From positions 992,001 to 1,056,000 of the forward strand of contig OZ237754.1 of NCBI GenBank assembly GCA_965178125.1: DNA of 64,000 nucleotides, written 5' to 3'. Below are positions 1-64,000 of the stretch, piece by piece. This DNA is from Bilabrum cf. latius. Taxonomy: Eukaryota. The position numbers and the translations under genes were made by a program. A model generated the notes under the pieces. The model was not told the DNA's origin and did not search any database. It saw nothing but the letters and a program-made list of their open reading frames with translations. How positions within the stretch are numbered: position 1 is the first letter of the stretch; the number at the start of each line of letters is the position of its first letter.

Positions 1-709
1 GAGCCGTCTCCGTCAGAGATTTTAGTGGCAAGCCCCGGACTGTCGGACACCTCGTGCGGAGGGGCGACGACAGTCCTGGGGGGGGGCCGAGGCCACCGGT
101 CACTGGGACTACGCGGCGCAGAGGACCGTGAACGACAAGGTCATGAATAAGCTCGTGAAGAAGTTTGAGGATCGCGACGACGCCCGCGAGCGCGCGCTGA
201 AGAAGGCGCGGACCGAGGGCCCCAAAGCCGAGCCCCCGCACATGGTAGCCGAGCGGGAGGCAGGCAAGCCGCTCGACAAGTTTAGCCAGCAGGATTTGAT
301 CGATACTACACTTGCGCAGCGTTCCGCGGGCGGCAAGCTAGCTGTTGAGGGCATGTGGAAGATGCGTGTGGACTACGCGGAAGGGCTGGCCAGGAAAGCT
401 GCCAAGAGCTCACAACCTGCCGGTGGTCGCAAGCGCAAGCGGTCAGTCAAGACCGAGCTGGAGGGTGGCTCCATCATGATGCCCGAGTACTACGACGCGA
501 AAAACCTGAGAGGCTACGTGGACCAGGAGGTTAAGTAGCTAGCATCTGCCTCTTCTGCAGTGTTTAAGTCTATTTCAGGCATCACCTCTGCAGCAGATGG
601 CATCAAGGATGCAATGGCGCAGTTGCAGTCAGTTCCAGCAGGCACGGGACGCGGTCTACGGCGGAAAACCTCCGACGTGATGTCTCAACTCGCCAAAAAG
701 GTAGATTAA
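1..709 (+). CDS. 3' part of a hypothetical protein, truncated by the window edge; reads through TAG 536-538 and ends at TAA 707-709 (possibly TAA 839-841)
   Basis: ORF 128-538 continues in frame after TAG as LASASSAVFKSISGITSAADGIKDAMAQLQ...KKVD. No family recognised. Confidence 0.55.
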
Positions 710-1977
710 TTGGCTGTAAGTGCGGAGGAAGCTGAGAAGCTCCGAGCTATTGCGACAGAAGCACTACGCAAGGCGACAGCTGCAAAGCCAGAAACCCTGC
801 TGAATGCTGAAGGGGCTGTGCCAGCTGAGCTCTAGAGCTAAATTGTTGCAGTTGGCCAACGTGACTTTTTTTAAATACACGATTATACAATTGGGACTGC
901 CTAACGCGAAGAATACACCGAATCACCAGCAGTGGACCTGATACAAGATGTCCGTCGCTGAGGTGAACGGCAAGCTGTGCTCCTTGCTCCCGCAATATCT
1001 GATGGACCACCCATCAAACACGCATGCAAATCGTCAATTAAACATTGTTTTGATGATATTAAAACTATAGGAGAGTAAACTAAGGCTGCAACTAGGGTCC
1101 AAAAGCTGCATGAGCAACATCCCATACATAGAGGTCGCCTGTTCGCAGGCAGAAATCACCCTATATTCAGCGCCCTGTATCTCAGTACGTACTTATGGTA
1201 TGAAAAAATGGAAATGTGCTGAAAGTTCGTCAGAAGGTGCTTGATTACTTGGGAACAATGCCGAATACGCTACTTTGGACATTTCGATTCTGTTGCGTGT
1301 ACTAGATCGGACTAAAATATCCCAGACTTAGAGGTTGCAACCCTACCCTCCCCAACCCCTCCATTCGTCCCCCCCCCCCACCCCACCCCTGCTCCCCCCC
1401 CTAGCTGCTCTCTCTCTTTCACTCCTCCGCATCGCTACGTCGCATCTGAGCCTGCTCCTCGAGCGGGTCCTGCGCCCACCGAGCGACCTCAATCTCAGAG
1501 ACCTTGCTGGCCTCACCAACCATGATTGCACGCGTGCCTGCCAGCCGTGGTGTGTCTTGCAGGCTCGGAGTTGCAGTTCGTATTGCGGCATGCAAGTACT
1601 TGGGGTGGGGGCGGCCCATTGCTGGCGGAGGAGGAAGCCCACGCCATCCCTGTCGCCGTCTTTCTCAGCAATTGTACCCGGCAGGGATAGCATCCAGTGC
1701 CACAGATCCAGCGACTATCCAGGATGCCTGGTTACCAAACCTCCCACCAATAACTCGTGATCTATAGCCATTACTGACTAATTCGTCCTACTGTAGTTTA
1801 AATACTTACTGCACAGCTTCATCCGCGTGTGTCTGTATCCGTATTCTGGAATCCGGATCCGGATGCGGCGGCGCACCGAAGTAGCTACAGCTAAAGCACC
1901 GGATTCCATTTACACCAGTGCACGCATGGATCCTGATCCGGACATGACCCGGCTCCTCCCGCGTTGCCGCGCCCTAC

Positions 1978-4900
1978 TCACTGCCTCGCACCGCTGCTGC
2001 CAGATCTATCCGATCCCGACAGACCTGGCCTATCCCCCCACTTACCCCCAGCGGCGGCAACAGAGCCGTCTCCCTCACCGTCGCCGTCCAAACCGTCCGC
2101 CTCGTCATCGTCCCACCCCCCGCCATCCTCCTCCTCACTCCCTCCTTCCTCTCCCCACTCGGCCTGATACAGCGGCAGGCCCCCCAGCGGGCCCGCCGTC
2201 GGCAGCGTGAAGGGCCCTGCCCCGGGCGCCCCAGGCGCGGTGGACCCGTGCGGTGCCTCTGGGTGCCTCTCGTGCTCGCCCAGGCTGCGGAGGGCGAGGG
2301 CGCTGGCCACGCGCCTGGTGACCCTCCTGCCCGTGCGCCCCGCCCACGTGTACCAGTCCTGCTCGTCGTACGCCTTGCCGTGCCCGTCCCCGTGTGCTGC
2401 GGGCAACAGTGCGTCCAAGGGATGCGCCAGCTCCCCGTCCACCTGCTCTCTGTCGCTGCCGCTCTAACTAACTACCCCGGCGGATGCCTCGGGCGCGGAC
2501 CGGCCACCGCCCTCACCCTGTTCGTGGGCAGCTGGGCCAGGGGTGGCACGCGGGCCAGCGCGGGAACGATCTGCCTGCTCGACTTCGATGTCGGCGCTTA
2601 ATCTGTCGGGTTCACGGCGAGCGGTAGCTGTGGAACTACTTGCCCCCAAAGCCAACGACGAGGGAGCAGACCCAGCCCGTGCCCTGGACCCTGCGCCCAA
2701 GGAAGTGGGCCTTCCACTTGGGTTCGCCGTGTCCACCCGCCCCTGCCTCCCCGCATCCGCCCCACCACCTGCCCCTGCCAATGCCCCTCCAACTCGCTAG
2801 TCCTGTTTCCTCGCTGTATCCCTTCTCGCCCTCATTTGCCGCTCGGCCGCCGTGGCCTCATGCACCCCCACCGGCTCGCGACCCTCGAGGCCAGAGGGCG
2901 AGGACGAGGACGAGGACACCTATCGCCCCCCGAGTGCCCTTGCCGCCGCCTAGTGCCCGGCTCCCGCCGCCCGGTCCTGTGCTCGCCTCACGCGCAGCAT
3001 CTCCTTCCTGGCGAGCACACGAGCCACACGCAGGGAGGCGATGCGGGGGCCCGCGATGGACGGACCAACCAGCGGGAATGCGGGCGGGTTCGCTCTGGCT
3101 GAAGCTGCGTTGGCTGAAGCTGCGTTGGCTGAAGCTGCGTTGGCTGAAGCTGAAGCAGACCCGGGCTGGCGGCTTGCTTCGCTCCTGGCTTGCGTGCCAG
3201 CCGCCTCCCGCCCGGACCTCCTCCCCTGCAGACCGCACACGCCCAGGGACAGCTCCCTGTAGGCCTGGAGCAGAGCCGCGCACGAAGAACAAGACGCACT
3301 GCTCCCATCGCGCGCCGCACCCACCCGGGCCCCCTGCATGGAAGGCACCCACACACCCGAGGCACGCGCCACCGCCGGCCAGCGCGCCCCCGTGTCCCGG
3401 AGGACCCACCCAAACCTTGGCTTGCCCCTCGTCTGCCCCGCACCGGCCCATGGCCCAGCTCCCCTCGATCGGCTGCCGCTCCCGAGGACAAGTGCGGCCG
3501 GCAGCACTGCCCCGGCCAGCGCCGCCACGAGAGGGGGCAGCTGCGGGGCGGGCTCGAGGGCAGCGAGGAGGGCGGGGGGCTGCGGGGCCAGGTCAGGGGC
3601 CCTGCCCTCCTCCATGCCGAAGACGCGTGGGGTGCCACTGCCGCTGCCGTGCCGACGCCGCTGCTGCGACTGCTGCGACTGCTGCCCCGGGCGCTGGGAG
3701 CTGATGCGATCATACTCGGCTTCGGACTGGTGGGCCAGGGCGAGGTGCATTGCGCTGCGGCGCGCGGCCTCGCTCCCCTTTCTGGCTGCACTCAGCAGCG
3801 CGCGGCGGTGCTCTGCCGCGGCGGTTTGGGCCTGGTGCATCGCACTGCGGCTGGTCGCGTGGTCTGGGCGCCCTAGCCTGTCGCGTGCCCCAAACGACGA
3901 TGAGGCTGCCTGGCCGTACATGCTGCGCACTGGGGGCGCGGGCAGCACGGGTATGCCGCGTCGCCTCATGACGGGGCCGAGGTGCCGCCGACGATAATGG
4001 CCATGTTCCCCGCTGCTTGACTCCTCCTCGTCGTCTACCTCTTGCTCGCTGCGATCCCTGCGATACATACCCCGCTGCTCGCCAAGCACAGGCGACGGGG
4101 GCCGGTTGGCGAGCAGCAGTATCCCGCATAGGTCTTCCCCAGAGAGGGACACGGGCACTGTGGGGACGGTCGCTACCTCTGCCTCGTCACGGGCCCCTGT
4201 GTATGGCTCCGTGCGTCCTTGTTCTCCGATGGCCCCGGGCGCTTGCTCCTGCTGTTGTGACGTGATCTCGGCCTCGCCATGTGCCCCTGATCCACGGCTG
4301 GGTGCATCCGCACCGCCAGCGACTTTACGAAGCGAAGGCTGCTGCTGTTCCCGAGTAGGGACTGCCTTGCCATCAGCCACATTGCGGACATCATCAGACA
4401 CTGCTTTTGCATCGCTGCTTGACGTGTTCGCGGGAGCTACCCTCTGCTGCGGAGGTGCAGCGGCTGTCCCAGCCTGCACTGCCATCCCCTACTCGTCCTC
4501 ACGATCACGCTCCTGCTGCCCCTTGGCACCCCGGGCCTCGTCCTCCTTTGTCCGGTGCCCTTTTCTCGCAACCGCTTCGTTGGCTGTGCCGTGGGTGCTT
4601 CCACCGACTCCGACCAGGGACTGGGGCTGGGGCTGGGGTGCGCCAGCATCTACATCCCCGACCCCGGTGTTTGCCTTCGCCCCGGGCCCGGATCCCGCTG
4701 CACTGCTCGCCGCAGGACCGGGGCCTGCGCCAGACTCCCGCCTGCCGCCCCCCGGGCTGGTGGCTCGCACGGGTGCAGCGGCTGCTCCGTGGGGGGGCGG
4801 CTTATGATGTTCCCTAGCGTTGGACCCACGCCCGTGTTCTCCAGAGACCCCCTCCTGGAGTGCAGCAACCCCCCGCAGCACCCCTGCCAGCTCCAGCTCC

Positions 4901-7317
4901 GCCGCAGCCACGGCCTCGCACGCCTCCCTGGCGCCCCTCCGCATCCACGGGGCCAGCGCCAGCAGCAGTACCGGGGCTGGGAGGATCGCACCGGCTCGGG
5001 CCAGGGTCAGAGCGACGTCAACGGCATCGAGGGGGGGCTGGCCCTGCTTAAAGATGCTGGTGCTGCTTCCGTTGCGCTCCCCCTCTGCACCTGGCCTGGC
5101 TCGATGCGGCCCGGACCTCTTGGGCACGCGCTGTTCCTCCTCCTCCTACTCCTCCTACTATTCCTCGTCCTCGTCATCCTCATCGCTGGAAGACCACCAG
5201 GACCACAGCCACTGATAGTCCCGCACGCCGTCCACCGGTGCATCCGAGCCGCGCAGCAGGCCCAGCAGCTTGTCACCGGCACCTCTTGCATCCTCATCCT
5301 CCTCTTCTTCCTCCTCGACACTCTCCTCCTAATCTTCGCCATTGTCATCATCATCGTCACCCGCCCCCCTCCAAAACCAGTACCCTTTATTCTTTCTCTC
5401 CACCCCCCTGGAAGCACGGCTCTTGTCTCTTGCCTCGCCGCCCTCGTCCTGCGCCCCACTGCTGTCATCATCGTCATTGCCACTACCTTCACTGTCTTCG
5501 TCATCATTGCTGCTGCTCCAGAACCACCCAGAGCTTTTCTTGGGCTTTGAGTTTAGCTTGGGATTGGGCTCCTCCGAAGCCCCATGCGTGGGATCTCGAG
5601 CGCCTCTCGCGGCCCCCCTCCCTGCCGGTGGCCGCACAGCACCGTGAGGGGGGCCCTCGGCTTCGAGACGCCCGAGCAGCACCAGCGGGGACTCTGCCAA
5701 CGGGGGAAACAACTCGTTTACCGGGCCTTCCCCTCCCCGCTGCCCCCTTTGTCCACCTACGCTCTTCTTTGCCCCCGCCTTCCCACTGCCCCGCTCCTGG
5801 TCCTGGTCCTGTCCCTGGCCCTGTTCCTGGTCCTGGTCCTAGCCCTGTTCCTCCAGAGCCGCAGAGGGCACCGACGCGGCCCGCACAACACTCCCGCCGC
5901 TCCGCGATGCTTCCCCCCCTACTCCACCCTCTTTGCTCACATGCACCCCACCGTCAAGCTGGGGACCACCCCTCGGCTGCCACCCCCAGTGCAAGCCCCC
6001 GATCGCCACGCTGGGTGACAGCGCCAGCGCCAGGGCGGCTGCACAGCCACTGGGCGCTTCCCACTCGCCCGCCCCCATGCCCGGCGCACCATCCTAGTGC
6101 ACTGCACTGCCCAGTTCAGCCACCGCCCGCTCCATCTGCGCCCGCGCCATCACCACCGCGCTCACGTACCGCCCGACTGCCCTCGCCGCGCCCTCCGCCC
6201 GCACCACAGCTGCCGCCACGCTGGGATCCTCGAAGGCGAGCGGCAGCTGCAGGCGGCTGCGCAGAGCCCGAGCCCCGGCCCGGCCCCACGCTGCGGTCTT
6301 CCTCTTCTACTTCTTCTGCATCTCCTTGGGCCCTCCGCCTTGTCCTTGTCCCGCACCTGCTGCACCGCTGCCTCCCAGCCCCTCCAGCAGCTGCCCAAGA
6401 GAGAGTCCCGCCAGCTCAGAGGCGGGGCCACGGGATCTGGTCTCCTCCCCCCCTGTCGCTGCCTGGCCAGATGCGCCCTGTTGCGATGCATGTGCACCAT
6501 CCCCGACGTCTGCTCTCCCATCTGCTCCTGACCCCGCCCCAACCGCGTCCATCTACTTTTCCTACTCACTCGTAGCCGCCCGCATGCGGGCTGCCTCCTC
6601 CTTACCGAGCAGGTACTCCACGGAAACCGCCCCCCCTTTAGAGGCGCTGCCCTTGGCCTTATTGACCGTGTCCACGCACAGCTGCGCCAGCTCCCACGCG
6701 TCCTGGGTCATGCCCCGCTTGAGGAAGGACCGGCACACGGCCCGCAGCTTGTCCGTCTTGGTGGCTGCCGCCTCGCCCCCTAGGTCCTTGCCGATGTACC
6801 GCCGGGCAAGCTTGCGGGCGTTTTCCTCCTCCTTGAAGTGAAGGTAAAACTCTACCCACAGGGGGGTGTCATACCGGAACGACTCCCCGAACGCCCGCAC
6901 GATGTCGTACCTGAACCAGTACACGTAGATCTTGCCCGTCAGGCAGAGCTGCACCACCTGCCCCGTCGTGATCGTGCCCGTGTACACCCAGCGGAACGTC
7001 GTTGTGTCCATCTCCATGACGCAATCCGGGGAGCGCCCGTCAGGCAGCGGGCCAAAGTAGGCGCGCACGGGGTTCTCCTCGTCCGACGGCTCGATCTCCA
7101 GAGTGAGCAGCTGCCGCTCACCGCCCCCGTCGGGACATACGCGGAACTGCAGCGAGCCCTTGTAGGTTGGTTCCCCTTTGCGATACGCAAACTTTAGAAA
7201 CCTTGCGCTCTGCAACCACAGAAAGAACGGAACTAGTGGCATAAAAACTCGTGACAATACCTTGTCGTTCTAGCCTACCTCGAGTGATCGTCTAGTTGAG
7301 AGTGGGGTCAGCCACAT
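1978..7317 (-). CDS. Large (~1,780 aa) low-complexity protein with an N-terminal SCP2/sterol-carrier-like domain; about 15 in-frame TAG
   Basis: ORFs 6562-7257, 6307-6552, 5839-6078, 5329-5712, 4489-5127, 2950-4485, 2464-2781 and 1978-2442 share one frame, are separated only by TAG and end at TGA 1978-1980. PDCVMEMDTTTFRWVYTG...LTGKIYV resembles the SCP2 fold. Start is uncertain (ATG 7317 or 7242). Confidence 0.7.
3098..3151. repeat. 15-bp tandem repeat (GCTGAAGCTGCGTTG, about 3.5 copies) encoding ASANA repeats on the minus strand
   Basis: Directly visible in the sequence. Confidence 0.85.
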
Positions 7318-7971
7318 GGCCCCAAAAGAGAAGTGTGACTATAAAAATACTATTACTAAACATAGAGGCAGAAATTCCATTTCAAATCGTGCTCTAAAGG
7401 CTGATAATCTGACACGATTGTATGCTACCATCAGCGAACACCACCGGACATCCGTGCGGTACCGAAATTGGGCATGGTTGCGGCCAGCTACAGGTAGGCA
7501 CCCATACTATTTCGATTGCATCCTAGACGAGCTCATTCTATTCTAGTGGCGCACTTCAAACCAGTGGACCGGTGGCATGAGACCCAGCATGGTCACTCAC
7601 TTCTCTCGAGTCCTCTTCCCAGCCCTTTGAACGACCCAAATCGACCTTGTCCGGCAGGGACTCAGCCTTTTCTACCGGCATGCCAAAGGAACAATCTCGA
7701 AATCGAACGGTTGGCTTGATATTAGGAAGGGTTGACAGCTTGCGTGGCAGTTGCACAGTGACGAGTGACATGATGAGTAGATCAACCTGCAGATGGAATT
7801 TGAACAAGATTTTGGTAATTCATTCCCCCACTCAGAAGCGCTGATCGCAGTGGTTCTAGTCCGCACAACACCAAAATCAGCCGTCCGTGACACAGAGCCC
7901 ATGCAGCCCAGCACCACCAAGAAGGCCGGTCATCCACACTACCAGTGGTGGGTGGCACTGGCAGCCAGCCC

Positions 7972-9084
7972 TCACCGCCCCGAGGGCACCTGGATCGTGT
8001 CGGTCAGGGCCGACCGCAGCACATCATACAGCACGAACTGCGCAGAAGCGGCCGGAGCCAGCTTCAGCACGTTCACCCAGAACCCCCTGTAGAGGGACAG
8101 AGCCCCCTCCTCCTGCACCACGTGCCACAGCACGCGAGCCCAACGGGGACGCCACGAGAGCCGCCCCTTGGCCCCGGAACCCCCATCACTCCCCACACCG
8201 GATCCACTCGCCACATCAAGATCGATGGCCTTGGGCAGCACGGGTGACCTCTCTAGCTCGAGCCTCCTGCGCAGCGTGTCCAGGGGGTAGGTCAGCGAGG
8301 CACCGGCCACCGCGGCGCTCAGGCCAACGGCTAGCCTGGAGAGGGGGAACCACCACTGGCGCCGCGCGTGCTCGTTCTGCGGAACCATGGACCGGAAGGC
8401 GTCGTAGCTTGCGTACGAGACCCCCAGCAGCGGCGGGAGGCCCAGCAGCGAGGGAGTGAGGCCGCGGTAGAGGGCCGCAGGTCCGCCCGCCCGCAGGTTC
8501 TGCGCCCAGCAGTCGGCGATGCCGGCGATGGAGCGCCGCCCGCCCGTCAGAGTGACGTCGGCACTGATCTGCGTGCGGGCCAGTTCCAGCGGGTAGAGCA
8601 GCACCAGAGTCGAGGCGCCGGAGCACACGCCGGTGGCCAGCCGCCGGAAGAAACGCCCTGTGGACGGCTGGCGTCGCTTGCTGTCGCCAAACACGGGCCC
8701 CCAAAGGTTAAAAAAAACAAAGTTGAGGGAAGCCTACGGGATGACCCGCATGACGTTTGTACCGTTGCCGCGCCACAGGCCCAACGCGCCCTCCGTCCGC
8801 CAAATTGCCTTGAGCGCGTGTCTCGCCGTGGTCACAGACGCCTGAAACCCGCGCGGCTTGGAAGTCCCAGCCCCTTCCAGCGCCCTTGGCACCATCGGAG
8901 CGACTTGCAGCAGTATTTTGATTCGAGCCAGCGGGGCTACCAGGGTTTTAGAGGCTGCCACCGCGCCTCCGCCAGCCGCAAGCTGCAGAGAGAGACGCGA
9001 AAACCACTCGGTAGGGACGTCTACGGTTCGATGCGCGGTTCGACGCCGGCGCTTGGCAGAGTTAAGTGGTTGACGCTCGTTCAT
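7972..9084 (-). CDS. Mitochondrial carrier family (SLC25) protein, nucleotide/CoA-carrier-like; one in-frame TAG at 8734-8736
   Basis: Carrier motifs SKTLVAPLARIKILLQ, LWRGNGTNVMRVIP*ASLNF, YPLELART, YPLDTLRRRL and LYRGFWVNVLKLAP. The two ORFs are in the same frame, joined by TAG, and end in TGA. Confidence 0.9.
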
Positions 9085-9253
9085 GACTGCAATCGCATGG
9101 CCAATAGTCCACTTTTATGCCAACTTTGACTGTTGAACATTTTTCTACGATGTGACGAGTCTCATGTACCGTGCTGTTAGATAGATTAAACCAGAATCGC
9201 GCCACCGGTTCCCTGCTGGCGCTGCGATCGCCAGTTGCGGAGTAAGGAGAAGC

Positions 9254-10709
9254 ATGCCCAAGAAGCAGTTCGAGCCCGTGCAGTTCCTTAAGGATTTGGC
9301 CGCTGGTGGCGTGGCCGGTGGCATCTCCAAGACCGTGGTGGCCCCCATCGAGCGCGTGAAGCTTATCCTTCAGGTGAGACGCAAGATCATGTTTTCGGCT
9401 GGCCTTGCCTCTGTTCTGACCCCGCTAAACCAGTGTTTGCCAGCCATTATTGAAGGTATTATAATCCATTGCATGCTCCAGTATAGAATTCGGTATTGCT
9501 TAGGCTTGACTCTGAGAGATTGGCCCCAAGATGCATCTTGTCGTGCCAACGCACTGGCATCTCAGCACGATGGCTAGCACCAGCTGGGACCCCGTGTCAA
9601 TGCATCCGTTGTGTGTATTTTTGAGCTGTTTCAAATATTTGTGTGTTGCATATCAGAATTAGGGGCAAGCTGGGCCTGACTTGGACTCGTACATGTCATG
9701 ACCATACCACAGCGGAACACGTAGCCGTCGCTTCGAAGCGACGGATGTCGGTCGGGATACCGCTGACCACATAGACTTGCAAATTCATGTACTGTCTATG
9801 TGCCTCGATGCTCTGCTGCTGTCTACGAAAAGCTGAAACGTACGTTGAGCGCGTGCGGGGTTCCATCTGCTTCTTCCCTTCCATCTGCTTCAATGTCTGT
9901 TCTCGCAGGTCCAGGATGGTGCCAAGAACATCACCGAGGACAAGAAGTACAAGGGAATCGTGGATGCATTCCGCCGCATCCCCCAGGAGCAGGGCTTCGC
10001 CTCCTTCTGGCGCGGGAACATGGCCAACATCATCCGGTACTTCCCCACTCAGGCGCTCAACTTCGCCTTCAAGGACACCTACAAGGAGATCTTCCTGGCC
10101 GGTGTGGACAAGAAGAAGCAGTTCTGGCGGTTCTTCGCCGGTAACCTGGCATCTGGTGGCGCCGCCGGTGGCACCTCACTGCTGTTCGTGTACCCCCTCG
10201 ATTTCGCCCGTACCCGCCTCGCCGCCGACATGGGCAAGGGCGCCTCGGACCGCCAGTTCGCCGGCCTCGGCGACTGCATCAGCAAGATCTACAAGGCTGA
10301 CGGCATGGCCGGCCTGTACCAGGGCTTCGGCGTGTCGCTGGGCGGCATCATCGTGTACCGGGCCTCTTTCTTCGGCGGGTACGACACCGCCAAGGGCATG
10401 CTGCCCGACAACGTCAAGAACAACATCATCGTGCAGTGGGCCGTGGCCCAGACCGTGACCACCGCCGCTGGCATCATCTCGTACCCCTTCGACACCGTGC
10501 GTCGCCGCATGATGATGCAGTCGGGCGCGGGCAAGGAGCGCCTGTACACTGGCACTCTGGACTGCTGGCGCAAGATCGCCTCCCAGGAGGGCCCCGGTGC
10601 CTTCTTCAAGGGCGCCTTCTCCAACGTGCTGCGTGGCACTGGTGGCGCCATCGTGCTGGTCATGTACGACCAGATCAAGCTGCTCATGGCCGCTAACGAC
10701 GGCAAGTAA
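9254..10709 (+). CDS. ANT: ADP/ATP translocase (adenine nucleotide carrier); exons 9254-9373 and 9909-10709
   Basis: [36 protein letters not shown] and the RRRMMM signature. Intron GTGAGA...CGCAG at 9374-9908. Ends TAA; no internal TAG. Confidence 0.97.
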
Positions 10710-16680: not shown

Positions 16681-16808
16681 TATGGTCTGTTGTATTGTAT
16701 GAATGTCGGAGCGTCGGACAGCCGGTCGTGATCTTCATCTTCAATACTATGTGCACTTGCGCTTCGGCAGGATGGCCCCTTAGTCGCACGTTTGGCTGCA
16801 CCTATCAA

Positions 16809-53988: not shown

Positions 53989-54247
53989 ATCACGTTCCAT
54001 TGCAGGACAGTCTGAGCTCTAGCTGTAATCAAGTTTGGGGACGTCGTCCAGGTAGCTGATTAATAGCCTCCATCGGCATTTTTTTCTTTGCAGATGCATC
54101 AGATATCCGGACTTGAGTCGTCGGAAGCCACCGAATGGCTGCAGTTGCACTTCGCTCCGCAATTGACGAGAGAACGCAATTTGGGCACACGCACACACAT
54201 TGTTCCAAGGCATAAAAACACTGAACTTTGAGTATTACACGTAAATT

Positions 54248-56392
54248 ATGAAGTTGCATCCTGCTGCATGGTTAGCAGCGGCATTGTGCGCTGCATCAAC
54301 AGTAAGATCGTTCCGTCCGAGTGGGAGCCAGAGCGCGTCATATATAAGCTTACCGGCGGAGATGAAGCAACTTCTGATGCACTCACGCCGCAGTGTGCGC
54401 ATGCATCATCTGCTATTCTAGGCGTAGAGTTTGGTGGGGTCATGGCATTTGCAGACCAGTGGACAAGCACTAAAGCTCCGAAGACATTGAACGGGTCAGG
54501 CGCAGCACCTGTTGACAATCATGGGTGGCCTATGAGCGACTTTTTTCAAGTAAGAATGGAATATCATTGAGCGCAATAACCGCGACTGTTTTCTGTTAAC
54601 TTGGAGTTGGCCTACTACCTGACTTCGGACGCCGGTTCAAGCAGGTGGTGTTCGATCTGCGGCCATCCTTCGCGTGGGCCCCACCAGAGGTGAGAAATGA
54701 ATGAGAACAAGTACGGCGCGAGACGTGCATCAAATTCATACCAATTTGTCGTTTTTATGATCCGATGCAAGACGCAGGATGACCCCCAGCACATCGGGGA
54801 GTGGACCGCTGGCGTGTGGCAGATGCGCTTCCAGGGACTCGCCAACGTGAGCTGCATCGTGGACCCGAACGCGGGCTGCGCCTGGCAGTTCAGCGAGCTC
54901 TCTTACGAGGAGGACACGAACTGGTCCTACCTCAACCTGACCATGCCATCGGAGAAGTGGCACCCGGAGCTGAACCTGATGCTGCTCAACTTCACCGACA
55001 CCAGGCGCAACCTCACCGCGCCCCTGGGCTCGGGCATCAGCAACATCAGCCTCATCATCCCGAACCACACGTTTGCCGATGCTGACATCCACACGGGCCA
55101 GTTCTTCTCCAACAACCTCATCACGGCCATCAAGAGCATCAAGGCCTGCAAACACGCCCGATTCATGGGCGCACTGCACACCAACTACAAGTCTGGATTC
55201 TACGGTGAGTCTGCGACCCCTTTCGCTTCCGATTGGGCGTATCCATGCAAGCAAATGCATTGTAACTGACACTACTCTGCTTCGTTTCACACCAATGCTG
55301 TCACACGCAGGTGATCCGGGCCATCACATCATCGAGTGGTACCAGCGGCACACTCCTGCCGATGCCAGCCGGAAATACAGTGCTCGCGACAACCCGTAGG
55401 GCGGTGGCATATCATGGGAGGCGATCGCTAAGTATGCCAGCACCTTTGGGCAGGACGTCTGGGTGAACCTGCCAGTGGGCGCCTCTTCTGCCTGCATGCC
55501 GGTGCCACAGGGTAGCAGCTGCTGGAGCGGCAACAGCAGCTCCTACGTCTCTCAGGCGGCCAAGCTTCTCCACGACCAGCTGCCCAAGGACTCGGCCGTG
55601 TACATAGAGCACTCCAACGAGGTCTGGAACTTCGGATTCTCCCAATACACGTACAACAAGCTCAACGCGCTGGACGTTTGCAAGACCACCAGTAACAAGG
55701 ACGCCATCTGCAGCGTGCCCTGCCCATCCAAGAAAGATCCCAATAGCACGCTGCCCTGCAATAACCAAGAGGTGCTCGGCCAGCGCAGGCACCTGCAGCG
55801 GCTCTATGAGAGCGTTCGGGAGTTCGCGGTTATCTTTGGCGAGAGTGAGATCAACAACCGAATCAGAGGCATCTACGCCGAGTGGAGCCGCTTCCCGCAG
55901 CACTACAACGACACACTCACTTGGTTTGAGACGGCTTACGGCAAGGGGGCGGCTGCCAAGTACTTGTGGGGTGTCGCGGCCACTGCCTACTTCAACTACA
56001 ACCAGACCGCTGCTGGCCCCAAGACCCTGCCCAGCAAGGCTCCCGTGGACGACATCGTGAAGGGGTACAGCCTCACGGCCAACAACGTGTCGCTGGACGA
56101 AGTTGAGATCGCCGCTGTCGGCAAGGCCTTTGGTCTCAAGATGACATCGTACGAGGCAGGACCCGGCATGAAGGTCGGCACCAAGACTGACCTCAGCAAC
56201 GTGCTGCTGGCACACGCTAACGAGGGCATGCACCAGGTCATGCTGGACTGGTACAAGACCTACGGGGAGGTCTTTGATATCCTTCACCAGTTCTCTCTGG
56301 CTGGGTACTGGAGTAGGTACGGGGCTTGGGGTGCCACGCGCATCCTGAGCGATACTGACGGGCCCAAGTTCAGCGCGCTCAAGGAGATGTGA
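54248..56392 (+). CDS. Secreted glycoside-hydrolase-like protein (clan GH-A-like TIM barrel); exons 54248-54301, 54394-54549, 54645-54689, 54778-55204, 55311-56392; TAG 55397-55399
   Basis: Signal peptide MKLHPAAWLAAALCAAST|CAHA; VDNHGWP, ARFMG, ISWEAIAKYA...DVWVNLP, VYIEHSNEVWN (candidate acid/base) and TSYEAG (candidate nucleophile). Four GT-AG introns restore the frame. Confidence 0.75.
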
Positions 56393-56516: not shown

Positions 56517-59500
56517 TCAGTTCTCGGTAGTGCACATGGAGCACACCTTGGGCGCGCCTTCTCTGGTCTTGTTCTCGAACGTGCATGCTATGCAGTTCCA
56601 TGTGACCAGGGGTGCATTGGCGCGCGCGCCCCCGCCCCCCCTACCGATCCGCACTCCCGTCTCCCGGGGCTGAGATCCTCCGGACCCGCGAGAGCCTGTC
56701 TCCCAGGGTTTGCGACGGCGGCCACTCGCCGATCCACCTGCAGGCTTGCCCTTGCCTGCAGCAGCCTTTGCAGGCCCTCCCTCGGCCACCCACTGCTTGA
56801 ACTCCGCCTCTGACCGCACCATCACGGTGAGGCCATCCCTCAGGCCCAGGGCGGCCAGGATGGGGTCTTCCTGTGCGCTAGAGTCAGGATCGTGCCACTT
56901 GAGCTCGTGGGCTGTGCGGCCGCTTGGCTTAGGACCGTACCCCGCCACTTTGGCCAGTCCAACTCCCTGCCACACCTTGGCATCGCCGTCAGCTGTAGCA
57001 GCACCTGCCCGCCCTGCAGCACCTCCGGCTGACTCTCCAGCGCTACTCGCGGCGGCCGCAGCAGGAGAGGCTCCCGCATCATCTGTCTGCAAAGCGGCAC
57101 CCGCAGGCCCTGAATCTGCGGGCCCTGATCCCTCCGTGGGGTCGTTGCCCCCTTCAGCCTCCACGGGCACCTTTAGCTTGCGCGCCGCCAGTTCCTTAAG
57201 TTGCAGAATGGGCATTTTCTTGGGCACAATAACCTCCACGGGGGGGTTCAGCCGCATGGCGAGAGGCCGCCACCGCTGCAGCGAGATGATCATGTCGTGC
57301 GGGCCCACTTCCTCCGCCTCGGGGAGCAGCTGCACGCACAGCTCCAAGCCGTCCTCGAGCCTCCGGACCTCGTTTTTGAGAGGGCGGGCATCCCGTAAGA
57401 TCTTGCCGGGGCCCTCCCTCTGCTTCTTTTCCCGGAGCCGAATGCGGTTGGTCGGCAGCGATATGCCTCTCGACTCGAGCGCTGCGCATATCTTGCGCTT
57501 TAGCTGCCGCACCGGGGCCGTGGACTTGGCTGGAAGCTCGCACAGTCGGTGAAAGCGGGTGCCCGCTCCGCCCTTCTTGCGGCCCGCAGTACCGCCGCCC
57601 CGCCCACGCAGCACGGGTCGCTACCCAGGCATGCGGGGCCCAGCACCTGGCGGGGGCGATGGTGAAGTGCCCTCGCTCGCTTCTGTCGCAGCCCCGGAGG
57701 CGCTCGAAGCAGGCGAGCCGCGCCCCGCGGAAGCTGTCTCGCTGCCATCCTGGGAGTTGTGCGAGCCAGCTTCTGCGGGCTCAGCTGCTGTGCGACCCTG
57801 CTGCTTGCGCTTCCACTCCTCGACCGAAGTGCCCAGTAGGAATATCTTGCTGCGGTACTCGTCAGCCGCCATCTGCACCCCAAAGCACACATGCACGATG
57901 GATCTATCCACCAAACACAGGCCATCCCTGCGTTTGCCCCCCGTCTCTGCCGCCCTCATGTTCTGCCTCCTCAGCACGTCCACTGGGTCTCCCACGATCT
58001 GCTCCAGGTCCTTCACCACGGCCCCACGCACGCTGCGGCGCAAGTAAAAGTCGTCTGGATCTGCCCCAATCTGCGCTCCCACGGCCTCTTTCAGGGCCCG
58101 AACTGTGTCGGTGCGGCGCACGGTGACGGACCGGGAGTAGTCGGGGGGCGGTAACAGGTCCTCCCCGCCCGCCGCAGCCACTAGCTCAGGATCCACAGGC
58201 TCGTTGAAGCTGATTGCGATGGACGCGCGCTCAGCGTCGAACCTATCCTTGAAGGTAGCATGTACCACCTCCGCATCCTCCGATGGAGATGGAGGGGCGC
58301 TGGGTGCATCTGCCCCGGTGGGCGAGTCGTCCTCGAGCACAACGGTGCATCCAGAGTACGCGCCGAACTCCCTGCGCAGGTCAGCTTCCGCATCGCCCAC
58401 CAGCCGCACCAGAACGTCGCCGTCCAGCAGCCACACCTTCCTGCCTGGTTTGGCCAGCCCCAGCCCCGGTACCCTCTTCTGCCCCGCCTCGGAGGCGAGC
58501 GCGTCCAGCAGTCGGTCCAGGTCGCCCAGCTGGGCACCGTCACCTCCCAGCCGCACGCCCACCTGCGGCATGGCGGCCAGGCTCTCCTCCAGGGACACAG
58601 CGGGGGCCTGCTCCTCACCGCAAGCAGCTCCAGATCCAGACGCGGCAACCTCAGCGACCTTGCGCGCAGGATCCTTGTCCGGCATGTAGCGCACCACCCG
58701 CAGCACCACGTCGTCCTTCGAATAGGGGGCCCAGCGCCTGTCCGCGGGTCGCAGCTCGAGGAACAGATCCGTGGCACCCGAGACTCCAATCCATGACAAG
58801 GGGCACTGCAAGGGGCCGGCAGGCATGGAGGCACCACCACGGGCAGCCACTTCCCCGCCCGACCCACCGCTGGCCGCCCCCTCCTTGGTCTTAGTCTTGT
58901 CCGTCTCTTCCTCTTCTTGTGCCCTACGTCTCTCCGCAAGTCGGTCCAGCTCGCGGGCAGCTACACTCGTCAGGGGCTCCTGCGGCACGCCCGCCGCACT
59001 GTTGAAGCGGCGCAGGCGCACCCTCCAAGCGTCTGGGTCGGCTTCGGCACTGCTGCCCTCCGGTGGCACCAGAGCCAGCAATGCTGCAGCGGCCTTGGCT
59101 CGGTCTTCCCCGATGCCTGCCACGTCTTCACCCGCCTCCCGCAGCGCGTTCAGCAGGCCCTCTAGGTCGGCAACCGGTGTTTCCTTCCCTGCTGCATCGG
59201 CGCCTTCCGCAGACTCCCCGCTCTTCTCGGATAGCCCGCTGCCCACCGCGGCGACAGCTTGTCTAGTTGCCTCCGCCAGGGAGCTCCCCCGCCATATGTC
59301 GGCCTGGGCTGCAGCCAGGGCGGAATCATGACTCGGGCCATCATTGTCGGAAGCAAGGCTGGCTTGCACAGCCCCCCCGCCGGCGATCGAAGCCTCCAGC
59401 AGTTTCTCCTCGGGGCTGGCGGCTGCCACGGGCGAGTCCCCACCTGCACCACCCCCTGCCGCTTCAGATGCGGGGCGTAGTCTCTCGCCACCACTCTGCG

Positions 59501-61523
59501 CTCCTGGCCCCCTCACCCTCACCTGCGCGATGGCCCTCCTCACCCGGCTGGCTCGCAGCAGCTTCTCGTACACCCCGTTGAAGCCCTCGATCGCCTCTCG
59601 GACGGGCCCGGGTGGCACGGGCTCCACCAGAGTGGCGGCACAAGCCTCTGTGCCCCTCGCCTCCGATGCCTCCTCGGAGGCGGGCGGGGCGTCCTACGAT
59701 GCATCTTGGGCGCAGCGCACGTACAGGAGCAGGTACGCGTTACCTGCTGGCCCCCCAGTCTATTCTGGTTTCTCTGGTGTATGACTTTTGTTTGGCTTGG
59801 CCTAGTCGTCCTCAACCTGATCTCCTGTATCCTACTCGGTCTCGACTCCAACCGATTGCCCAGGGTCCGCTGCGTCCTCTTGCATCTTACCGGATTCGCC
59901 AAGACTATCCCCCTTGTCATCCGCGCCTTCTGAATCCACTTTTTTGCCATCCGTGCCTTTCCCATCCTCCTATTGCCCATCCGAGTCTCCGGCTACCTCC
60001 GACGAATTGAGATCCATTGCTCGTAGGAGTGCCTGCAGGTCAGGACCCCTCAGTGGCTTGACGTGGGCGTCGTTGCATTCGAACCACTCCCCTGCCCGCT
60101 TCTTCTCATCTGTCTCCGCTTCCCACACGCGGGCCGTACCGCCGCCGTCCTCCTCATCCACCGCCACATCTTTCCAGCGACCCTGCGGCAGCCTGGTACC
60201 CGCTGCCGCCCCCGGACACACGTACATGAAGTAGTGCCCTCCCCCCGCCGAGCCCACGTGGATGAGCACAGCGTACAGGCGGTACACGCCAGACCTGTGT
60301 CCCTCTTCGCCGGATTTGAGGGAGCCATGCGTGGTGAGGGGCGCGGATGGCACCTCGGGCCCGGTGCCCTCCACTCTCTTCTCCTGCTTGGCCTTGGCCC
60401 TGGCCTGCTCCCTGTCTGTTTCCTTCTTCTCGGCTGCTTCGTCCCCATCTCTTTCTTCCTCCTTGTCCTCCTCATCCTCCTCCGACGTGAGGGCAGAACC
60501 CATATCCAACACCTCCGGGAATCGGAATGACTGCTGCAGCTTGACCCTCCGCATCACCTGCAGGTCGTACACGAACCGCTTCAGATGCATGCACAGCATG
60601 GGGGGCAGAGCGACCAGGCTCATGCCCTTGCGGGCAGTCCTCTTGCGCCCGCACGAGTCGCAGTGCCAGCCCTCGATGCTCTCGGATCGACCAGAGGCGC
60701 GGATGGACTCCACTAGGGAAGGAACTCCGCTCACGGGCAGCTCCAGGTCGATGAACGGCTGGCGCGTGGCTCTCCTGTACCCGCACCCCTCATGCGTGCA
60801 CGCGATGTGGTCGGACGAGTACCCGCGCAACAAGTCCCACACCAAGTGCTCGCGCAAATAGGCGGACAGTGTGGCACGAGTGCCCTGCGCCGCCCTTAGT
60901 GCGACTTCCTCGCCCGCCTCCACGCTGTCCTCGGACGGCAGTGGGCGTGGGGCGGCCGACTCGCTGCCAATGGTGGGGTCAGAGGCACCTTCGCGGTCCG
61001 GCGCGGGCAAATCCTGCTCTCCTGCGGCCTGCTGCAGGCGGGAGCGGGTCTGTGTGTAACTGTTTTCCATGGCCTCCAGCAACAAGTGCAGCAGCTCCTG
61101 CACGTCGTGCTGCTTGAACGCATCAGCTCCTCCCCACCCGAAGGCTTCCGTAAGGCCACCCGTGGTCTGAGCTGGGGCGCGGGAAAGCTGCATGCCAGCA
61201 AAGAGGGCCTGCAGCTGGGCTGGAATAGCAGATAATTCCTAGGCAGCGGCAGACTCGCCTGGGTCATTCCGCCACTCGTACACGCGTTTCCTGAAGTCTG
61301 GGGAGTGAAACAATGCCTGCACCAGCGAGTTCAGGTAGCAAGTCGCGCCCTAATTCACCAAGCCACTGAGCCCATGCGATGGTTTTTCAGCAAAAAACTG
61401 TGATCCGCGCGTTTTGATTGCAGATTCCAAAGCAGGCCTAACAGAGTGCAGAAGCTTCAAGTCTTCCTCAGAAGGCGGTCTCAATTCGAAGTCTTGGTCC
61501 CGCGCGTCAATGGAACCCGACAT
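56517..61523 (-). CDS. Ubiquitin-specific protease (USP47/USP40/USP7-like) with probable UBL regions and a C-terminal RanBP2/NZF zinc finger; 7 in-frame TAG
   Basis: Cys box GLVN*GATCYLNSLVQ, FGW...QHDVQEL, LCMHLKRF, His box YAVLIHVGSAGGGHY, WFECNDAHV, NAYLLLYVR; WNCIACTFEN...CSMC then TGA. Confidence 0.92.
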
Positions 61524-61952
61524 ATGATTCCTATAGGGGGGTTTATAGAAATACCGCAATAATTGACGCCTGCGGGTTGAAACATTGGTGCGATAGGTCG
61601 AGCATGGTGTGAAAAAAGCGTGGGATCCATCCGCAGGCTTCAGAGAGGGGCCCCGAGGCTGTGCATTGCAATGAGTGCGCCATTATTTGCATGCATCGGT
61701 GATTCAAATTGCTAGAACACTGTCTCACACCAAACAGGCACCAGTTCAAAGCAAGGACGGACTGAGTGGATCGATAGTTTGCATAACGTTCTTGAAAACT
61801 CGGATCCACCTATAGGTAGTACCGTGCACATTGCCATAGCACTGCCAACCGAGTCAACTAAGCGTGAATGAGGCTACCCCACGGACCCTCGTGGCATGAC
61901 GTCGCACTGCATGTCTGGAGCAGCTCTCAAGGGCCAATGCAATCCCCCCAGG

Positions 61953-63116
61953 TCACTGCAGGGCCCCGAACCCCACGGTTCGAGACGCGTCCCCGGGCCC
62001 GATCTCCTGGGACACAAACACCCAGTCCAGGTCCCCGTTCTCATCGAGTACTACGCGGGGCCTCTCGTTGTTCGCGGACGGGTGTGGCGGCCCGATGAGC
62101 TTGGAGGACCACCCCCACTGCAGCCCGTCGGGGGACCACCCGTGCGTCAGGTCGGGGGCCGAGTGCAGCAGCAGGTGGAACCCTCGCCTGCCGCGGTACA
62201 GCACGGGGTCCTCCGTGAGCACCTTGCCATTGCCCACGGGGACAGAGCCGTTCACGCCGGCGAGAGGCACCCAGCTGTAGCCCTCGCTCCAGTGCTGCGC
62301 TCGGTACAGGAAGATGTTGTGGTACACCTGCCTGGTGCCGTTGGGGAAGCGGCCCGCGTCCTTGCCCCGGGCCACCATCAGCGTGGTGCCGTTGGGGAAC
62401 ACGTACGGGGCTGGGTTGCTGGTGCCTGCATCAAATGGTAGTTTCTTTGTGGTCACGTTGATGCTGCCCGCGCTGGCCCACGGCCCGTCCAGCGACTTGC
62501 TGTAGTGGATGTGCGTGATAGAGTTGCCGGGGCAGGAGGGGGCGGGCCATCCGGGTGGGGGGCGAATGCCTGTGCAGTTGGGCGTGATGCCTCCTTCGCA
62601 TCCTTGAAAGTACGGGTTGCAAGAGTCGGGGTTGTCCCCTCCTCCGATGTGGTACAGCAGGTGCATCTTGTCGGAAGGACTGTATGTGTAGTATGCGTTG
62701 TGAGCCTGGGTGCCCACGGCCACACCAACCTTCTGATAAGGGCCTTCAGGTCGATCAGCAACTGTGTGGGCAATCGTTGACATTCTCGCCCATGTGCACA
62801 TGCCACAGCCAGCTGCAATTTCGGTCACATACAAATGGTACTTGGTCCCGTCGTAGACAGGAGGTCCGCCGCCCCAGCTGGACGATTTCGATACACCATG
62901 ACCATAAACGACTTTTGGCGTGTTATCGAGGTTCAATATCTCGCAGGTGTCGCCTGTCCACCCCTTGTCACATTCGCAAGCACCCTGGTCGTTGCAAGCT
63001 CCGTTCAGGCTGCAGTCCATGTCAGTGCTGCATCCAGCGGCAACAACATGTGCTACCAGACTAAACGCTGCAACGACAAAGGCAGCTCCAGCTGGGATGC
63101 CCCCAGTGTTCCGCAT
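61953..63116 (-). CDS. Secreted protein with an EGF-like module and a GH43-like five-bladed beta-propeller
   Basis: Signal peptide; CSTDMDCSLNGAC...CECDKGWTGDTC; SSWGG, YHLYVTE, PEGPY, SNPAP, EDPVLY, NERP. Ends TGA. Confidence 0.75.
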   Translation of the reverse strand: MRNTGGIPAGAAFVVAAFSLVAHVVAAGCSTDMDCSLNGACNDQGACECDKGWTGDTCEILNLDNTPKVVYGHGVSKSSSWGGGPPVYDGTKYHLYVTEIAAGCGMCTWARMSTIAHTVADRPEGPYQKVGVAVGTQAHNAYYTYSPSDKMHLLYHIGGGDNPDSCNPYFQGCEGGITPNCTGIRPPPGWPAPSCPGNSITHIHYSKSLDGPWASAGSINVTTKKLPFDAGTSNPAPYVFPNGTTLMVARGKDAGRFPNGTRQVYHNIFLYRAQHWSEGYSWVPLAGVNGSVPVGNGKVLTEDPVLYRGRRGFHLLLHSAPDLTHGWSPDGLQWGWSSKLIGPPHPSANNERPRVVLDENGDLDWVFVSQEIGPGDASRTVGFGALQ

Positions 63117-63251
63117 GAAGCCAAGTACACTGGTAGTACGGAAGGAGAGGTCCCGTCGCTCGCGATTTCACGAAAACCGGAAACATTTCTTAAAGTACGG
63201 TGCACTTTTACATGCCCGTTTCGCTCCGGGCTTCCAACAAGCGGCTCTACG

Positions 63252-64000
63252 ATGTCGTCTTCTACTGCTACTAAGGTATGGTACTTCATCGTTAGCGTGT
63301 GTTTGGGTTAGCCGGATTAAGGCTGCTAGAGTTCTTTGTGTTAGACACTTCTTGCATCCCACACGCAGGTTGCTGGCTCGCTGCCACTAATGATGTTCGA
63401 TGCCGGCAAGAAAGAAGCTGGGGCCGCATCGATGCGAAAGTTTGCTCGACGGTTGAAGGCGACATGTAGATTAGCGCCGTGAGTTCACGCCCTGTGTCCT
63501 GCGTACGAGCCTGTGGTGCCGTCCGTTGGATTGCAGCTCCGGAAAAGAAATGCCTAAGAGAGCATCACTGTGCATAAGTGCGATTTCTGCATGGCACATT
63601 GTCATTAACCTATACTAATCTGTCGCTCGGCCCGGGGAAGATTAATTGGGAAGGCCAGCAACTTCTCATGTCGCTGCCCACTTTCGCAAATTCTCATCGC
63701 AGCTCGAAGAACGAAATATCCTCTGAGGTTCTCAAAAACGTGTCCGTGTTCGTATTAGCATGCCCTAGGTCAAAGCTTTCGGCTGCAGAAATCTCAAGCT
63801 TGCATGAATTCGTTGGGAGGGGCGGATCGCTGCTGGTCCTGTCTGGCGAAGGCGGTGACAAATCTCACGATACCAACTTGAATGAAATTACGGAGCCGCT
63901 TGGTGTAAAGATCAACTCTGATGTAGTACTTCGTGCCTCATTCCACCAGTTTTTACATCCCAAGGAATGTATCGTCAGCGGAGGAGTGGTGGACGAGGGG
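63252..64000 (+). CDS. IFT52: Intraflagellar transport protein 52, 5' part; exons 63252-63275, 63369-63478, 63703 to window end
   Basis: MFDAGKKE...RKFARRLK; FVLACPRSKLSAAEI..LHEFVGRGGSLLVLSGEGG...TNLNEI.EPLGVKINSDVVLR...FLHPKECIVSGGVV matches the IFT52 GIFT domain. Not present in the supplied ORF track. Confidence 0.9.

Follow-up and report, generated by a model that had tools for sequence, protein, structure and literature searches.

Gene content of the window

The window analysed here, a 64-kb stretch of DNA, carries fifteen genes distributed over both strands (Table 1). The gene identities are backed by Pfam or PDB matches, which agree with the housekeeping genes named in a preliminary description of the sequence. 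The DNA is 56–71% GC, and its introns are of the GT..AG type. The giant gene encodes a run of cadherin-like repeats, including a tandem array of 14.7 copies of a 411-bp unit (38611–44643); after these come a REJ domain and a GPS motif, with hydrophobic stretches beyond the latter. RNA depth over the ADP/ATP carrier gene is the highest of the stretch, and RNA contigs of three runs span the Cwc24/RNF113-like gene over its whole length.

Table 1. Genes of the 64-kb window, with their in-frame TAG codons and terminators.
Gene	Coordinates	Strand	Introns	In-frame TAG	Terminator
Gene 3′ part, runs off the window	2–709	+		2	TAA
Long low-complexity protein gene, no Pfam family	1978–7596	−		at most 18 (start uncertain)	TGA
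Second ANT-like mitochondrial carrier	7972–9114	−		1 (8734–8736, within carrier repeat)	TGA
ADP/ATP carrier (ANT)	9260–10989 (poly-A end 10989)	+	9370–9906	0	TAA (10707–10709)
Cdc14 phosphatase	11152–13888	+	11366–11580, 11709–11967	3 (exon 1: 11325, 11340, 11355)	TGA
WD40 (WDR76-like) gene	14573–16333	−		0	TGA
Long low-complexity protein gene	16809–22184	−		7 (5 under X5 RNA contigs)	TGA
Cwc24/RNF113-like splicing factor (CCCH + RING)	22469–23617	+		2 (23201, 23438)	TGA
Ytm1/WDR12 (NLE + WD40)	24032–25855	−		2 (25688–25690, 25475–25477)	TAA
Ubc6/UBE2J	25979–26939	+	26161–26256, 26340–26428	6 (one in UBC core, 26274)	TGA
Low-complexity protein gene	27887–31999	+		5	TGA
Giant gene, 6,796 codons	32473–52863	+		27 (0 TAA)	TGA
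Gene, family not assigned	54980–56392	+		1 (55397)	TGA
USP47-like deubiquitinase	56517–61682	−		8 (one in catalytic Cys box, 61350–61352)	TGA
EGF-domain protein gene	61953–63167	−		0	TGA

In-frame stop codons and gene ends

In-frame stops were counted over the stop-to-stop extents of the fifteen genes (seventeen segments, 17,752 codons), excluding terminal stops. The genes contain seventy-nine TAG codons, a few of which may precede the true starts of the genes at 1978–7596 and 16809–22184. No TGA and no TAA codons are found in frame, though the absence of TAA is partly by construction, as the ORFs were delimited with TAA and TGA. The other two frames of the same stretches contain 121 and 101 TAG, 39 and 67 TAA, and 381 and 356 TGA triplets.

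ORFs of at least 400 amino acids add up to 10,524 amino acids in the standard code; the total is 22,742 if TAG is read as sense and 11,561 if TAA is. In the TAG reading, adjacent ORFs in the same frame fuse, and the segment 32473–52863 becomes a single frame of 6,796 codons; no such fusion occurs when TAA is read through. When TGA is read as sense, overlapping frames appear on both strands, an unspecific effect that a high GC content is expected to produce.

TGA terminates twelve of the fifteen genes and TAA the remaining three (ANT, Ytm1, and the gene at 2–709). The ends at TGA or TAA give plausible C-termini, and none of the fifteen genes needs a TAG terminator. In the window, UGA thus stays a terminator, as does UAA. 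The last thirty-nine codons of the TAG-using genes are free of TAG, where by our own estimate about two would be expected, which is not a significant depletion. A dual role, with UAG also acting as a terminator, is very unlikely.

TAG codons in conserved domains and RNA

In-frame TAGs fall within the conserved domains of five of the proteins: the USP47-like deubiquitinase, Ubc6, Ytm1 (in the NLE domain), Cwc24, and the second mitochondrial carrier. Parts that the proteins need also lie beyond them. All eight TAGs of the USP47-like gene precede its USP47_C domain, and in the giant gene the REJ domain, the GPS motif, and the hydrophobic stretches all follow TAGs. Ubc6 has a hydrophobic C-terminal stretch downstream of all six of its TAGs, which we read as a putative tail anchor. 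As a control, USP47-like ORFs of other organisms were found to be free of TAG in forty-seven of seventy-five cases. At six inspected control loci (the three with three or four TAGs and three of the five with two), TAGs are confined to the flanking parts of the extent between stops.

Runs X5, X7, and X8 show GT..AG joints, a loose poly-A end, and depth varying from 0 to 1,928, from which we infer that they are RNA. Run X3 has a flat depth of about 36 and no GT..AG joints. Between positions 7501 and 27500, the listed contig pieces of X5, X7, and X8 include seventeen of twenty-one TAG codons. None of these seventeen has a listed deviation from the DNA, though contigs can hide rare variants.

TAG is therefore a sense codon in these genes, given the continuous frames, the TAGs within conserved domains, and the TAGs kept in spliced, polyadenylated RNA contigs. 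The only terminators in all fifteen genes of the window are TAA and TGA. The preliminary description had proposed this same division of the three codons, and frame continuity, domain positions, RNA retention, and gene ends uphold it; the retention of TAG in mature mRNA, which it had suggested checking, is borne out at the seventeen covered sites. Its estimate of about 75–80 in-frame TAGs, given for thirteen genes, agrees with our count, and our recount of the 20-kb gene (twenty-seven TAG, no TAA) is identical. It had twelve genes ending in TGA and none in TAG, as here, and had listed only ANT and Ytm1 as ending in TAA, missing the gene at 2–709.

Identity of the encoded amino acid

The most informative TAG lies in the Cys box of the USP47-like protein. 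At this column, 112 of 119 homologues have Gln, two have Leu, and none has Glu. The separate Gln counts at this column are 17/17 aligned homologues, 41/44 rows (from forty-three hits), and 71/75 motif instances (from eighty metagenome loci). The five other alignable TAG columns are variable and polar. Summing the log-odds over columns places Gln first (4.5 nats), with Asn at 0.5 and Glu at −4.6; without the USP column, the order is Asn, Asp, Gln, Lys. In addition, the TAG at 5841 takes the position of Gln in a (Gln-X)n repeat. The homologue columns are a poor match for Leu and Ser, with Leu occurring at most once in any of the Ubc6 TAG columns.

The main alternative is that UAG is a sense codon for Glu, or for another polar residue (Asn, Asp, or Lys), with UAA and UGA as stops. 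At two Ubc6-family TAG columns the commonest residue is Glu (28/96 and 39/128, with ten Gln in each), and a poly-Glu run at 5148–5160 contains three TAGs. The surroundings of TAG are acidic, as they are at GAG and GAA: the mean number of Asp or Glu within three residues is 1.09 for TAG and 1.08 for GAG, compared with 0.65 for CAG and 0.76 for CAA. A context score (Glu minus Gln) gives 17.8 for TAG, 6.6 ± 4.3 for CAA, and 23.9 ± 6.7 for GAA. In a comparison with gene-matched sets, the Glu-minus-Gln score of TAG was reached by 0/300 sets of true Gln sites and by 42% of sets of true Glu sites. The context method is weak, however, as it found the correct residue for only six of thirty-two test codons and ranked Gln only twelfth for CAA. 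With models built from major codons only, TAG and CAA differ by about 1.5 sd under a rough correction for sampling without replacement. There are also precedents, namely UAG as Glu in one ciliate (PMC11687900) and UAR as Glu in Blastocrithidia (PMC12153298).

Against Glu stand its complete absence from the USP Cys-box column, its negative summed log-odds, and a further Ubc6 column with Glu in 0/122 and Gln in 11/122 sequences. Overall, we consider a residue other than Gln unlikely. Gln, as the preliminary description had proposed, is most likely the residue at TAG, with the USP Cys box as the main evidence; the remaining columns are variable and polar, and the weak context test leans towards Glu.

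Other readings of the stop codons

Under an ordinary UAR code (similar to table 6), UAA would also be a sense codon, but one so uncommon in GC-rich DNA that a 64-kb stretch would contain none. TAA is indeed the rarest stop triplet of the window (182, versus 402 TAG and 905 TGA). Nevertheless, the ratios of CAA to CAG and of GAA to GAG predict seventeen to twenty-four in-frame TAA beside seventy-nine TAG, and the preliminary description's own refuting case, TAA used as sense as often as TAG, finds no instance in the window. Reading TAA as sense lengthens genes by no more than about twenty codons. ANT also ends in TAA where its C-terminus is normally found, 280 bases upstream of the poly-A end, and the same codon ends Ytm1 and the gene at 2–709. 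A UAR code is thus very improbable. Codes in which all three stops are reassigned or ambiguous (of the Condylostoma, Blastocrithidia, or Amoebophrya type), with UGA read as Trp inside genes, were rejected for the window, as none of the 17,752 codons is an in-frame TGA.

Finally, it is improbable in the extreme that the TAGs are sequencing errors, marks of pseudogenes, or codons edited or spliced out before translation: we found no points in favour of this, the RNA contigs keep TAG as in the DNA, the window sequence is matched by contigs of four runs, drawn from three studies (the sole base difference listed over 20 kb, 24550 A>G, lies outside any TAG), and the genes are expressed and spliced, with conserved domains intact past their TAGs.

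Taken together, we think it likely that the window belongs to the nuclear genome of a protist with GC-rich DNA and few introns, in which UAG is read as an amino acid, most likely Gln, while UGA (the main stop) and UAA terminate translation. All of this is drawn from 64 kb. In such a code, UAG would be decoded by a Gln-charged tRNA with the anticodon CUA, and eRF1 would have lost recognition of UAG and kept that of UAA. With most genes ending in UGA, a rarity of UAG as a stop may have eased its capture. The 64-kb window contains no tRNA genes (ARAGORN, Rfam) and no eRF1 gene.

Lineage and comparison with known codes

The nearest named relatives of the USP47-like protein are from Cafeteria, which are bicosoecid stramenopiles. 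Together with gene order and introns, this argues for a lineage outside the ciliates, whose genomes are typically AT-rich. The GC content of 56–71%, the GT..AG introns, the high expression of the ADP/ATP carrier, and the grouping of USP47 with Cafeteria are not known to fit ciliates or Iotanema. On the basis of the same features (GC, introns, the highly expressed mitochondrial carrier, and USP47), an independent origin of the UAG-only code is plausible, and this is probably a new lineage bearing a known, rare code. A more specific reading can be offered only tentatively: that stramenopiles here yield their first case of nuclear stop-codon reassignment, in a heterotrophic flagellate related to bicosoecids, with a GC-rich genome in which UGA is the main stop and a UAG-only code that arose independently of ciliates and Iotanema. 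Runs whose labels name several different organisms contain RNA of this one, so it seems to grow in cultures.

A close parallel outside the ciliates is Iotanema spirale, in which UAG encodes Gln, UAA is the primary stop, and a T32G change in eRF1 has been proposed (Panek et al. 2017, PMC5304391). Both cases combine reassignment of UAG alone, here most likely to Gln, with UAA as a terminator in a non-ciliate. Unlike this anaerobic fornicate, the organism studied here expresses a mitochondrial ADP/ATP carrier at a high level, has a GC content of 56–71%, and ends most of its genes in the window with UGA.

Among ciliates, UAG alone encodes Gln (NCBI table 15) in two phyllopharyngean lineages and in Protocruzia tuzeti (McGowan et al. 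2024, PMC11687900). These share with our window a sense UAG scattered through gene bodies and the use of UAA and UGA as stops. In those ciliates, 93.5–100% of aligned protein ends are at UAA, whereas UGA is dominant here. The UAR codes of many ciliates, hexamitid diplomonads, Streblomastix, ulvophytes, and Amoeboaphelidium (PMC11687900, PMC5304391) also have a stop codon read as Gln, but in our window UAA is not reassigned. Other UAG-only cases are the rhizarian exLh (Leu), Scotinosphaera (Ser), and Oligohymenophorea sp. PL0344 (UAG as Glu, UAA as Lys) (PMC11687900). As in all three, UAG and UAA differ in meaning here; the residues of exLh and Scotinosphaera suit our columns poorly, and Glu as in PL0344 is a minority rival.

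Implications

UAA and UAG are almost always reassigned jointly, and the exceptions named in the available part of PMC11687900 are Iotanema, a rhizarian, Scotinosphaera, Protocruzia, some phyllopharyngean ciliates, and one oligohymenophorean. Another independent case would be a data point on how eRF1 drops UAG yet keeps UAA, on whether capture by tRNA-Gln(CUA) is the usual route, and on whether a stop codon is more readily captured when it is rare. Here the DNA is GC-rich, UGA is the main stop, and the organism appears not to be a ciliate. One practical consequence is that gene callers set to the standard code will break up most of this organism's long genes. If the stramenopile reading is true, the reassignment occurred in a compositional setting opposite to that of the typically AT-rich ciliates, and the organism could become a model for experiments on how eRF1 discriminates between UAA and UAG.

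Reading frames and gene ends

Under the standard code, the largest open reading frames (ORFs) in the window (GC content 56–71 per cent) are abutting pieces in the same frame, e.g. 32473–33678, 33679–35202, and 35203–36504. Reading TAG as sense merges these pieces into a single ORF of 6,796 codons at 32473–52863, which contains the 27 TAGs that a preliminary description had attributed to a 20-kb gene. Further ORFs of 1,872, 1,791, 1,721, and 1,370 codons open elsewhere in the window. Treating TAA as sense leaves the ORFs nearly unaltered. If TGA is treated as sense, overlapping frames open on either strand, a gain that is the unspecific behaviour of GC-rich DNA. The summed length of ORFs of at least 400 aa is 10,524 aa with the standard code, 22,742 aa with TAG as sense, 11,561 aa with TAA, and 34,747 aa with TGA.

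Across the stop-to-stop extents of 15 genes (17,752 codons) we counted 79 in-frame TAGs, within the 75–80 estimated earlier, and no TAA or TGA. The two off-frames of the same extents hold 121 and 101 TAGs, 39 and 67 TAAs, and 381 and 356 TGAs. In frame, TAG is only mildly depleted, and TAA and TGA are excluded. The zero counts for TAA and TGA are partly true by construction, because these codons delimit the ORFs; independent evidence for both as stops is that the gene ends are plausible and that no gene is extended when TAA is read as sense.

Twelve of the 15 genes end in TGA, three in TAA (the ADP/ATP carrier ANT, Ytm1, and a gene at 2–709), and none in TAG. The earlier account of gene ends was therefore accurate for TGA and TAG, though it had two genes ending in TAA and missed the one at 2–709. 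If TAA shared the meaning of TAG, the codon ratios (CAA/CAG 0.22, GAA/GAG 0.30) would predict 17–24 in-frame TAAs, and these extents have none. The TAA of ANT coincides with the end of its homologues, with the poly-A end 280 bases further downstream. Because the predicted in-frame TAAs are absent and TAA ends ANT normally, a code of the table 6 type is unlikely, as far as 64 kb can show. The claim that TAA and TGA remain stops thus holds in the window.

Gene content and the position of TAGs

Genes were identified from Pfam and PDB matches. ANT, Cdc14, and Ubc6 have GT..AG introns, visible as joints in RNA contigs.

Features of the window, and TAG codons found in the RNA contig pieces listed
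Feature	Position	Strand	Identified by	TAGs in RNA pieces
Second ANT-like carrier	7972–9114	-	Pfam/PDB	
Cdc14	11152–13888	+	Pfam/PDB	3/3 (exon 1)
WD40 (WDR76-like) protein	14573–16333	-	Pfam/PDB	
Gene 16809–22184	16809–22184			5/7
Cwc24/RNF113	22469–23617	+	Pfam/PDB	2/2
Ytm1/WDR12	24032–25855	-	Pfam/PDB	2/2
Ubc6/UBE2J	25979–26939	+	Pfam/PDB	5/6
Giant gene (cadherin-like repeats, REJ domain, GPS motif)	32473–52863	+		
Tandem array in giant gene, 411 bp x 14.7	38611–44643			
USP47-like deubiquitinase (USP)	56517–61682	-	Pfam/PDB	
EGF-domain protein	61953–63167	-	Pfam/PDB	

The TAGs are not limited to gene tails. One lies in the catalytic Cys box of USP, and the USP47_C domain is downstream of all eight USP TAGs. 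Another is in the UBC core of Ubc6, where a hydrophobic C-terminal stretch, read as a putative tail anchor, follows all six TAGs. The NLE domain of Ytm1 and a carrier repeat of the second carrier contain one each.

Several other features of the window were observed. The array in the giant gene consists of 137-aa cadherin-like units (411 bp) with a 92 per cent match between copies; a stretch of 2,190 codons there has no TAG versus about ten expected from the gene-wide rate, likely because the copies are kept alike. No gene was assigned in 52864–54979, and the gene at 54980–56392 has no relative in PDB, Pfam, or NCBIfam; two perfect tandem copies of a 78-bp unit (53038–53193) lie between it and the giant gene. 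The start codons of Ytm1 and Ubc6 stand head to head with 124 bases between them (25855–25979). This arrangement and the short gaps at other places suggest that the genome is compact and that a divergent promoter region is shared. The two ANT-type carriers also adjoin on opposite strands (7972–10989). ANT is a canonical ADP/ATP carrier, intron-bearing and very highly expressed; its neighbour, a divergent paralogue, has no intron, carries long inserts, and shows an RNA depth far below that of ANT.

TAG codons in RNA

The stretch is present in ten sequencing runs (coded X1–X10), four of which (X3, X5, X7, and X8) were aligned to 7501–27500. X3 behaves as DNA: most of its bins have an even depth of about 36, and the intron joints are all absent from it. 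From their GT..AG joints (9370–9906, 11366–11580, 11709–11967, 26161–26256, and 26340–26428), a depth of 0 to 1,928, and a poly-A loose end at 10989, we infer that X5, X7, and X8 are RNA, though none of the runs listed is registered as such in the run records, and the tool output rates the RNA status of these three as a guess.

At least 17 of the 21 TAG codons in 7501–27500 lie within the contig pieces listed for these three runs. The TAG-covering pieces show no other letters, except for one at an unlisted position in an X8 piece (26428–27494), and X5 spans the same TAGs with none. Retention of TAG in mature mRNA, proposed earlier as a check, is thereby confirmed. Together with the in-frame counts and the fused ORFs, it bears out the claim that TAG is a sense codon. 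Because the RNA contigs match the DNA at TAGs, wholesale editing, splicing-out, or sequencing error is excluded; low-level editing is possible, since contigs can hide rare variants.

Only one base difference is listed for these 20 kb: A>G at 24550, inside the Ytm1 gene and not at a TAG, which accounts for roughly one-third to one-half of the depth in both X5 (RNA) and X3 (DNA). Apart from this site, there is very little heterozygosity or strain diversity.

The amino acid at TAG

The strongest datum for the identity of TAG is the USP Cys box. Its TAG is opposite Gln in the USP47 and USP7 structures, in all 17 aligned homologues, in 41 of 44 rows from all 43 homologue matches, and in 71 of 75 motif instances from a metagenome scan (80 loci, five without the motif). 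Combined, Gln is found in 112 of 119 homologues, the others having Ala, Leu, His, Pro, or Val.

The remaining TAG columns that can be aligned are variable and polar. For Ubc6, counted from 150 representatives, the first column has Glu 28, Asp 22, Asn 14, and Gln 10; the second Asn 40, Asp 29, His 13, Gln 11, and no Glu; and the third Glu 39, Lys 27, Ser 12, Arg 11, and Gln 10. The Ytm1 residues are His, His, His, and Thr, and those of Cwc24 are Asn, Asn, and Lys. Searches for Ytm1 homologues gave one and two matches, the candidate list being crowded by low-complexity words. Summed column log-odds, using assumed background frequencies, put Gln first (4.5 nats; Asn 0.5, Glu -4.6); once the USP column is left out, the ranking becomes Asn, Asp, Gln, Lys. 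In the gene at 1978–7596 a TAG stands where a (Gln-X)n repeat would have Gln, and in that at 27887–31999 a poly-Gln run begins with TAG. The second carrier's TAG is opposite Thr of ANTs in the PDB alignment, which is uninformative because those ANTs are paralogues. The TAGs of the giant gene have counterparts only in diverged repeat copies, where Thr, Asn, Glu, and Leu occur at variable positions; these are likewise uninformative.

The main alternative is that TAG encodes Glu. Its surroundings are acidic, with a mean D/E count within three residues of 1.09 that resembles GAG (1.08) versus CAG (0.65) and CAA (0.76), and none of 300 gene-matched sets of true Gln codons attained TAG's context score. 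A neighbour-profile classifier ranked Glu first at TAG, but it named only 6 of 32 test codons correctly and placed Gln 12th for CAA. Major-codon models put TAG at 17.8, between CAA (6.6 +/- 4.3) and GAA (23.9 +/- 6.7). Given this intermediate value and the poor validation, the context result is only a weak lean towards Glu, and against it stands the USP Cys-box column, where Glu occurs in 0 of 119 cases. If TAG is Gln, the acidic setting calls for an explanation; many TAGs may, for instance, have originated as GAG in acidic tracts that tolerate substitution. We consider Glu unlikely and Gln, the original assignment, probable on the strength of the USP column and the summed log-odds, even though the other columns are variable and polar and the context leans the other way; other residues or dual use take up the small remainder.

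Affinity of the organism

Placement was based on one protein, USP; a Protein Atlas search with ANT added nothing on taxonomy. Its best full-length relatives (36–37 per cent identity over 88–89 per cent of the query region; 42–44 per cent in the N-terminal part) are a Cafeteria protein cluster and two relatives 57–79 per cent identical to Cafeteria proteins. In a quick single-gene tree on query-anchored columns, the window's USP is sister to the Cafeteria clade (SH-aLRT 94, below the 95 mark). A bicosoecid-related stramenopile is thus suggested, as a lead and not a placement. The NCBI entry ‘Usp47, partial [Symbiodinium sp. KB8]’ shares a 90 per cent identity cluster with the Cafeteria proteins and is 98.8 per cent identical to one; it is probably Cafeteria contamination of a dinoflagellate assembly.

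The metagenome scan with the USP alignment found its 80 loci at 30–51 per cent identity. We inspected TAG positions in six (three with three or four TAGs, and three of the five with two); these carry TAGs solely in ORF flanks, so that none of the six gives a sign of the same code. For the giant protein, a metagenome scan with its last 2,633 aa yielded no relative. DNA or RNA of the window occurs in runs with four different organism labels from four studies (among X1–X10), and the aligned pieces show no differences; two metagenomes, one algal and one of protists, contain small shares. The same sequence under different labels suggests that the organism lives alongside others in cultures.

Mechanism and relation to known codes

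Essentially all genes are translated past their UAGs, since termination there would deprive USP of the catalytic domain, Ubc6 of the hydrophobic stretch at its C-terminus, and the giant protein of the REJ and GPS domains. By analogy with variant codes elsewhere, as excerpts of PMC5304391 describe them, UAG would be decoded by a tRNA(CUA), most simply a tRNA-Gln(CUG) after one anticodon change, and an altered eRF1 would have lost UAG recognition while keeping that of UAA and UGA. ARAGORN found no tRNA gene in the 64-kb window, and Rfam gave no match there. UGA ends 12 of the 15 genes, so UAG may have been an infrequent stop even before its capture.

Reassignment of UAG only is known and, as had been stated, rare: excerpts of PMC11687900 give a handful of cases. 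There, UAG is Gln in Iotanema, Protocruzia, and two phyllopharyngean lineages, Leu in another phyllopharyngean lineage and a rhizarian, and Ser in Scotinosphaera; in one oligohymenophorean UAG is Glu and UAA is Lys. Full-text searches of an incomplete literature collection gave no report of a UAG-only code for any stramenopile, bicosoecid, or heterotrophic flagellate. Compared with the UAG = Gln cases described in those excerpts, the window probably has the same table, but its organism differs in GC content and main stop and probably in lineage. The kind of code is thus already known, and this organism adds another case. The proposal of an independent origin of UAG-only reassignment has good prospects.
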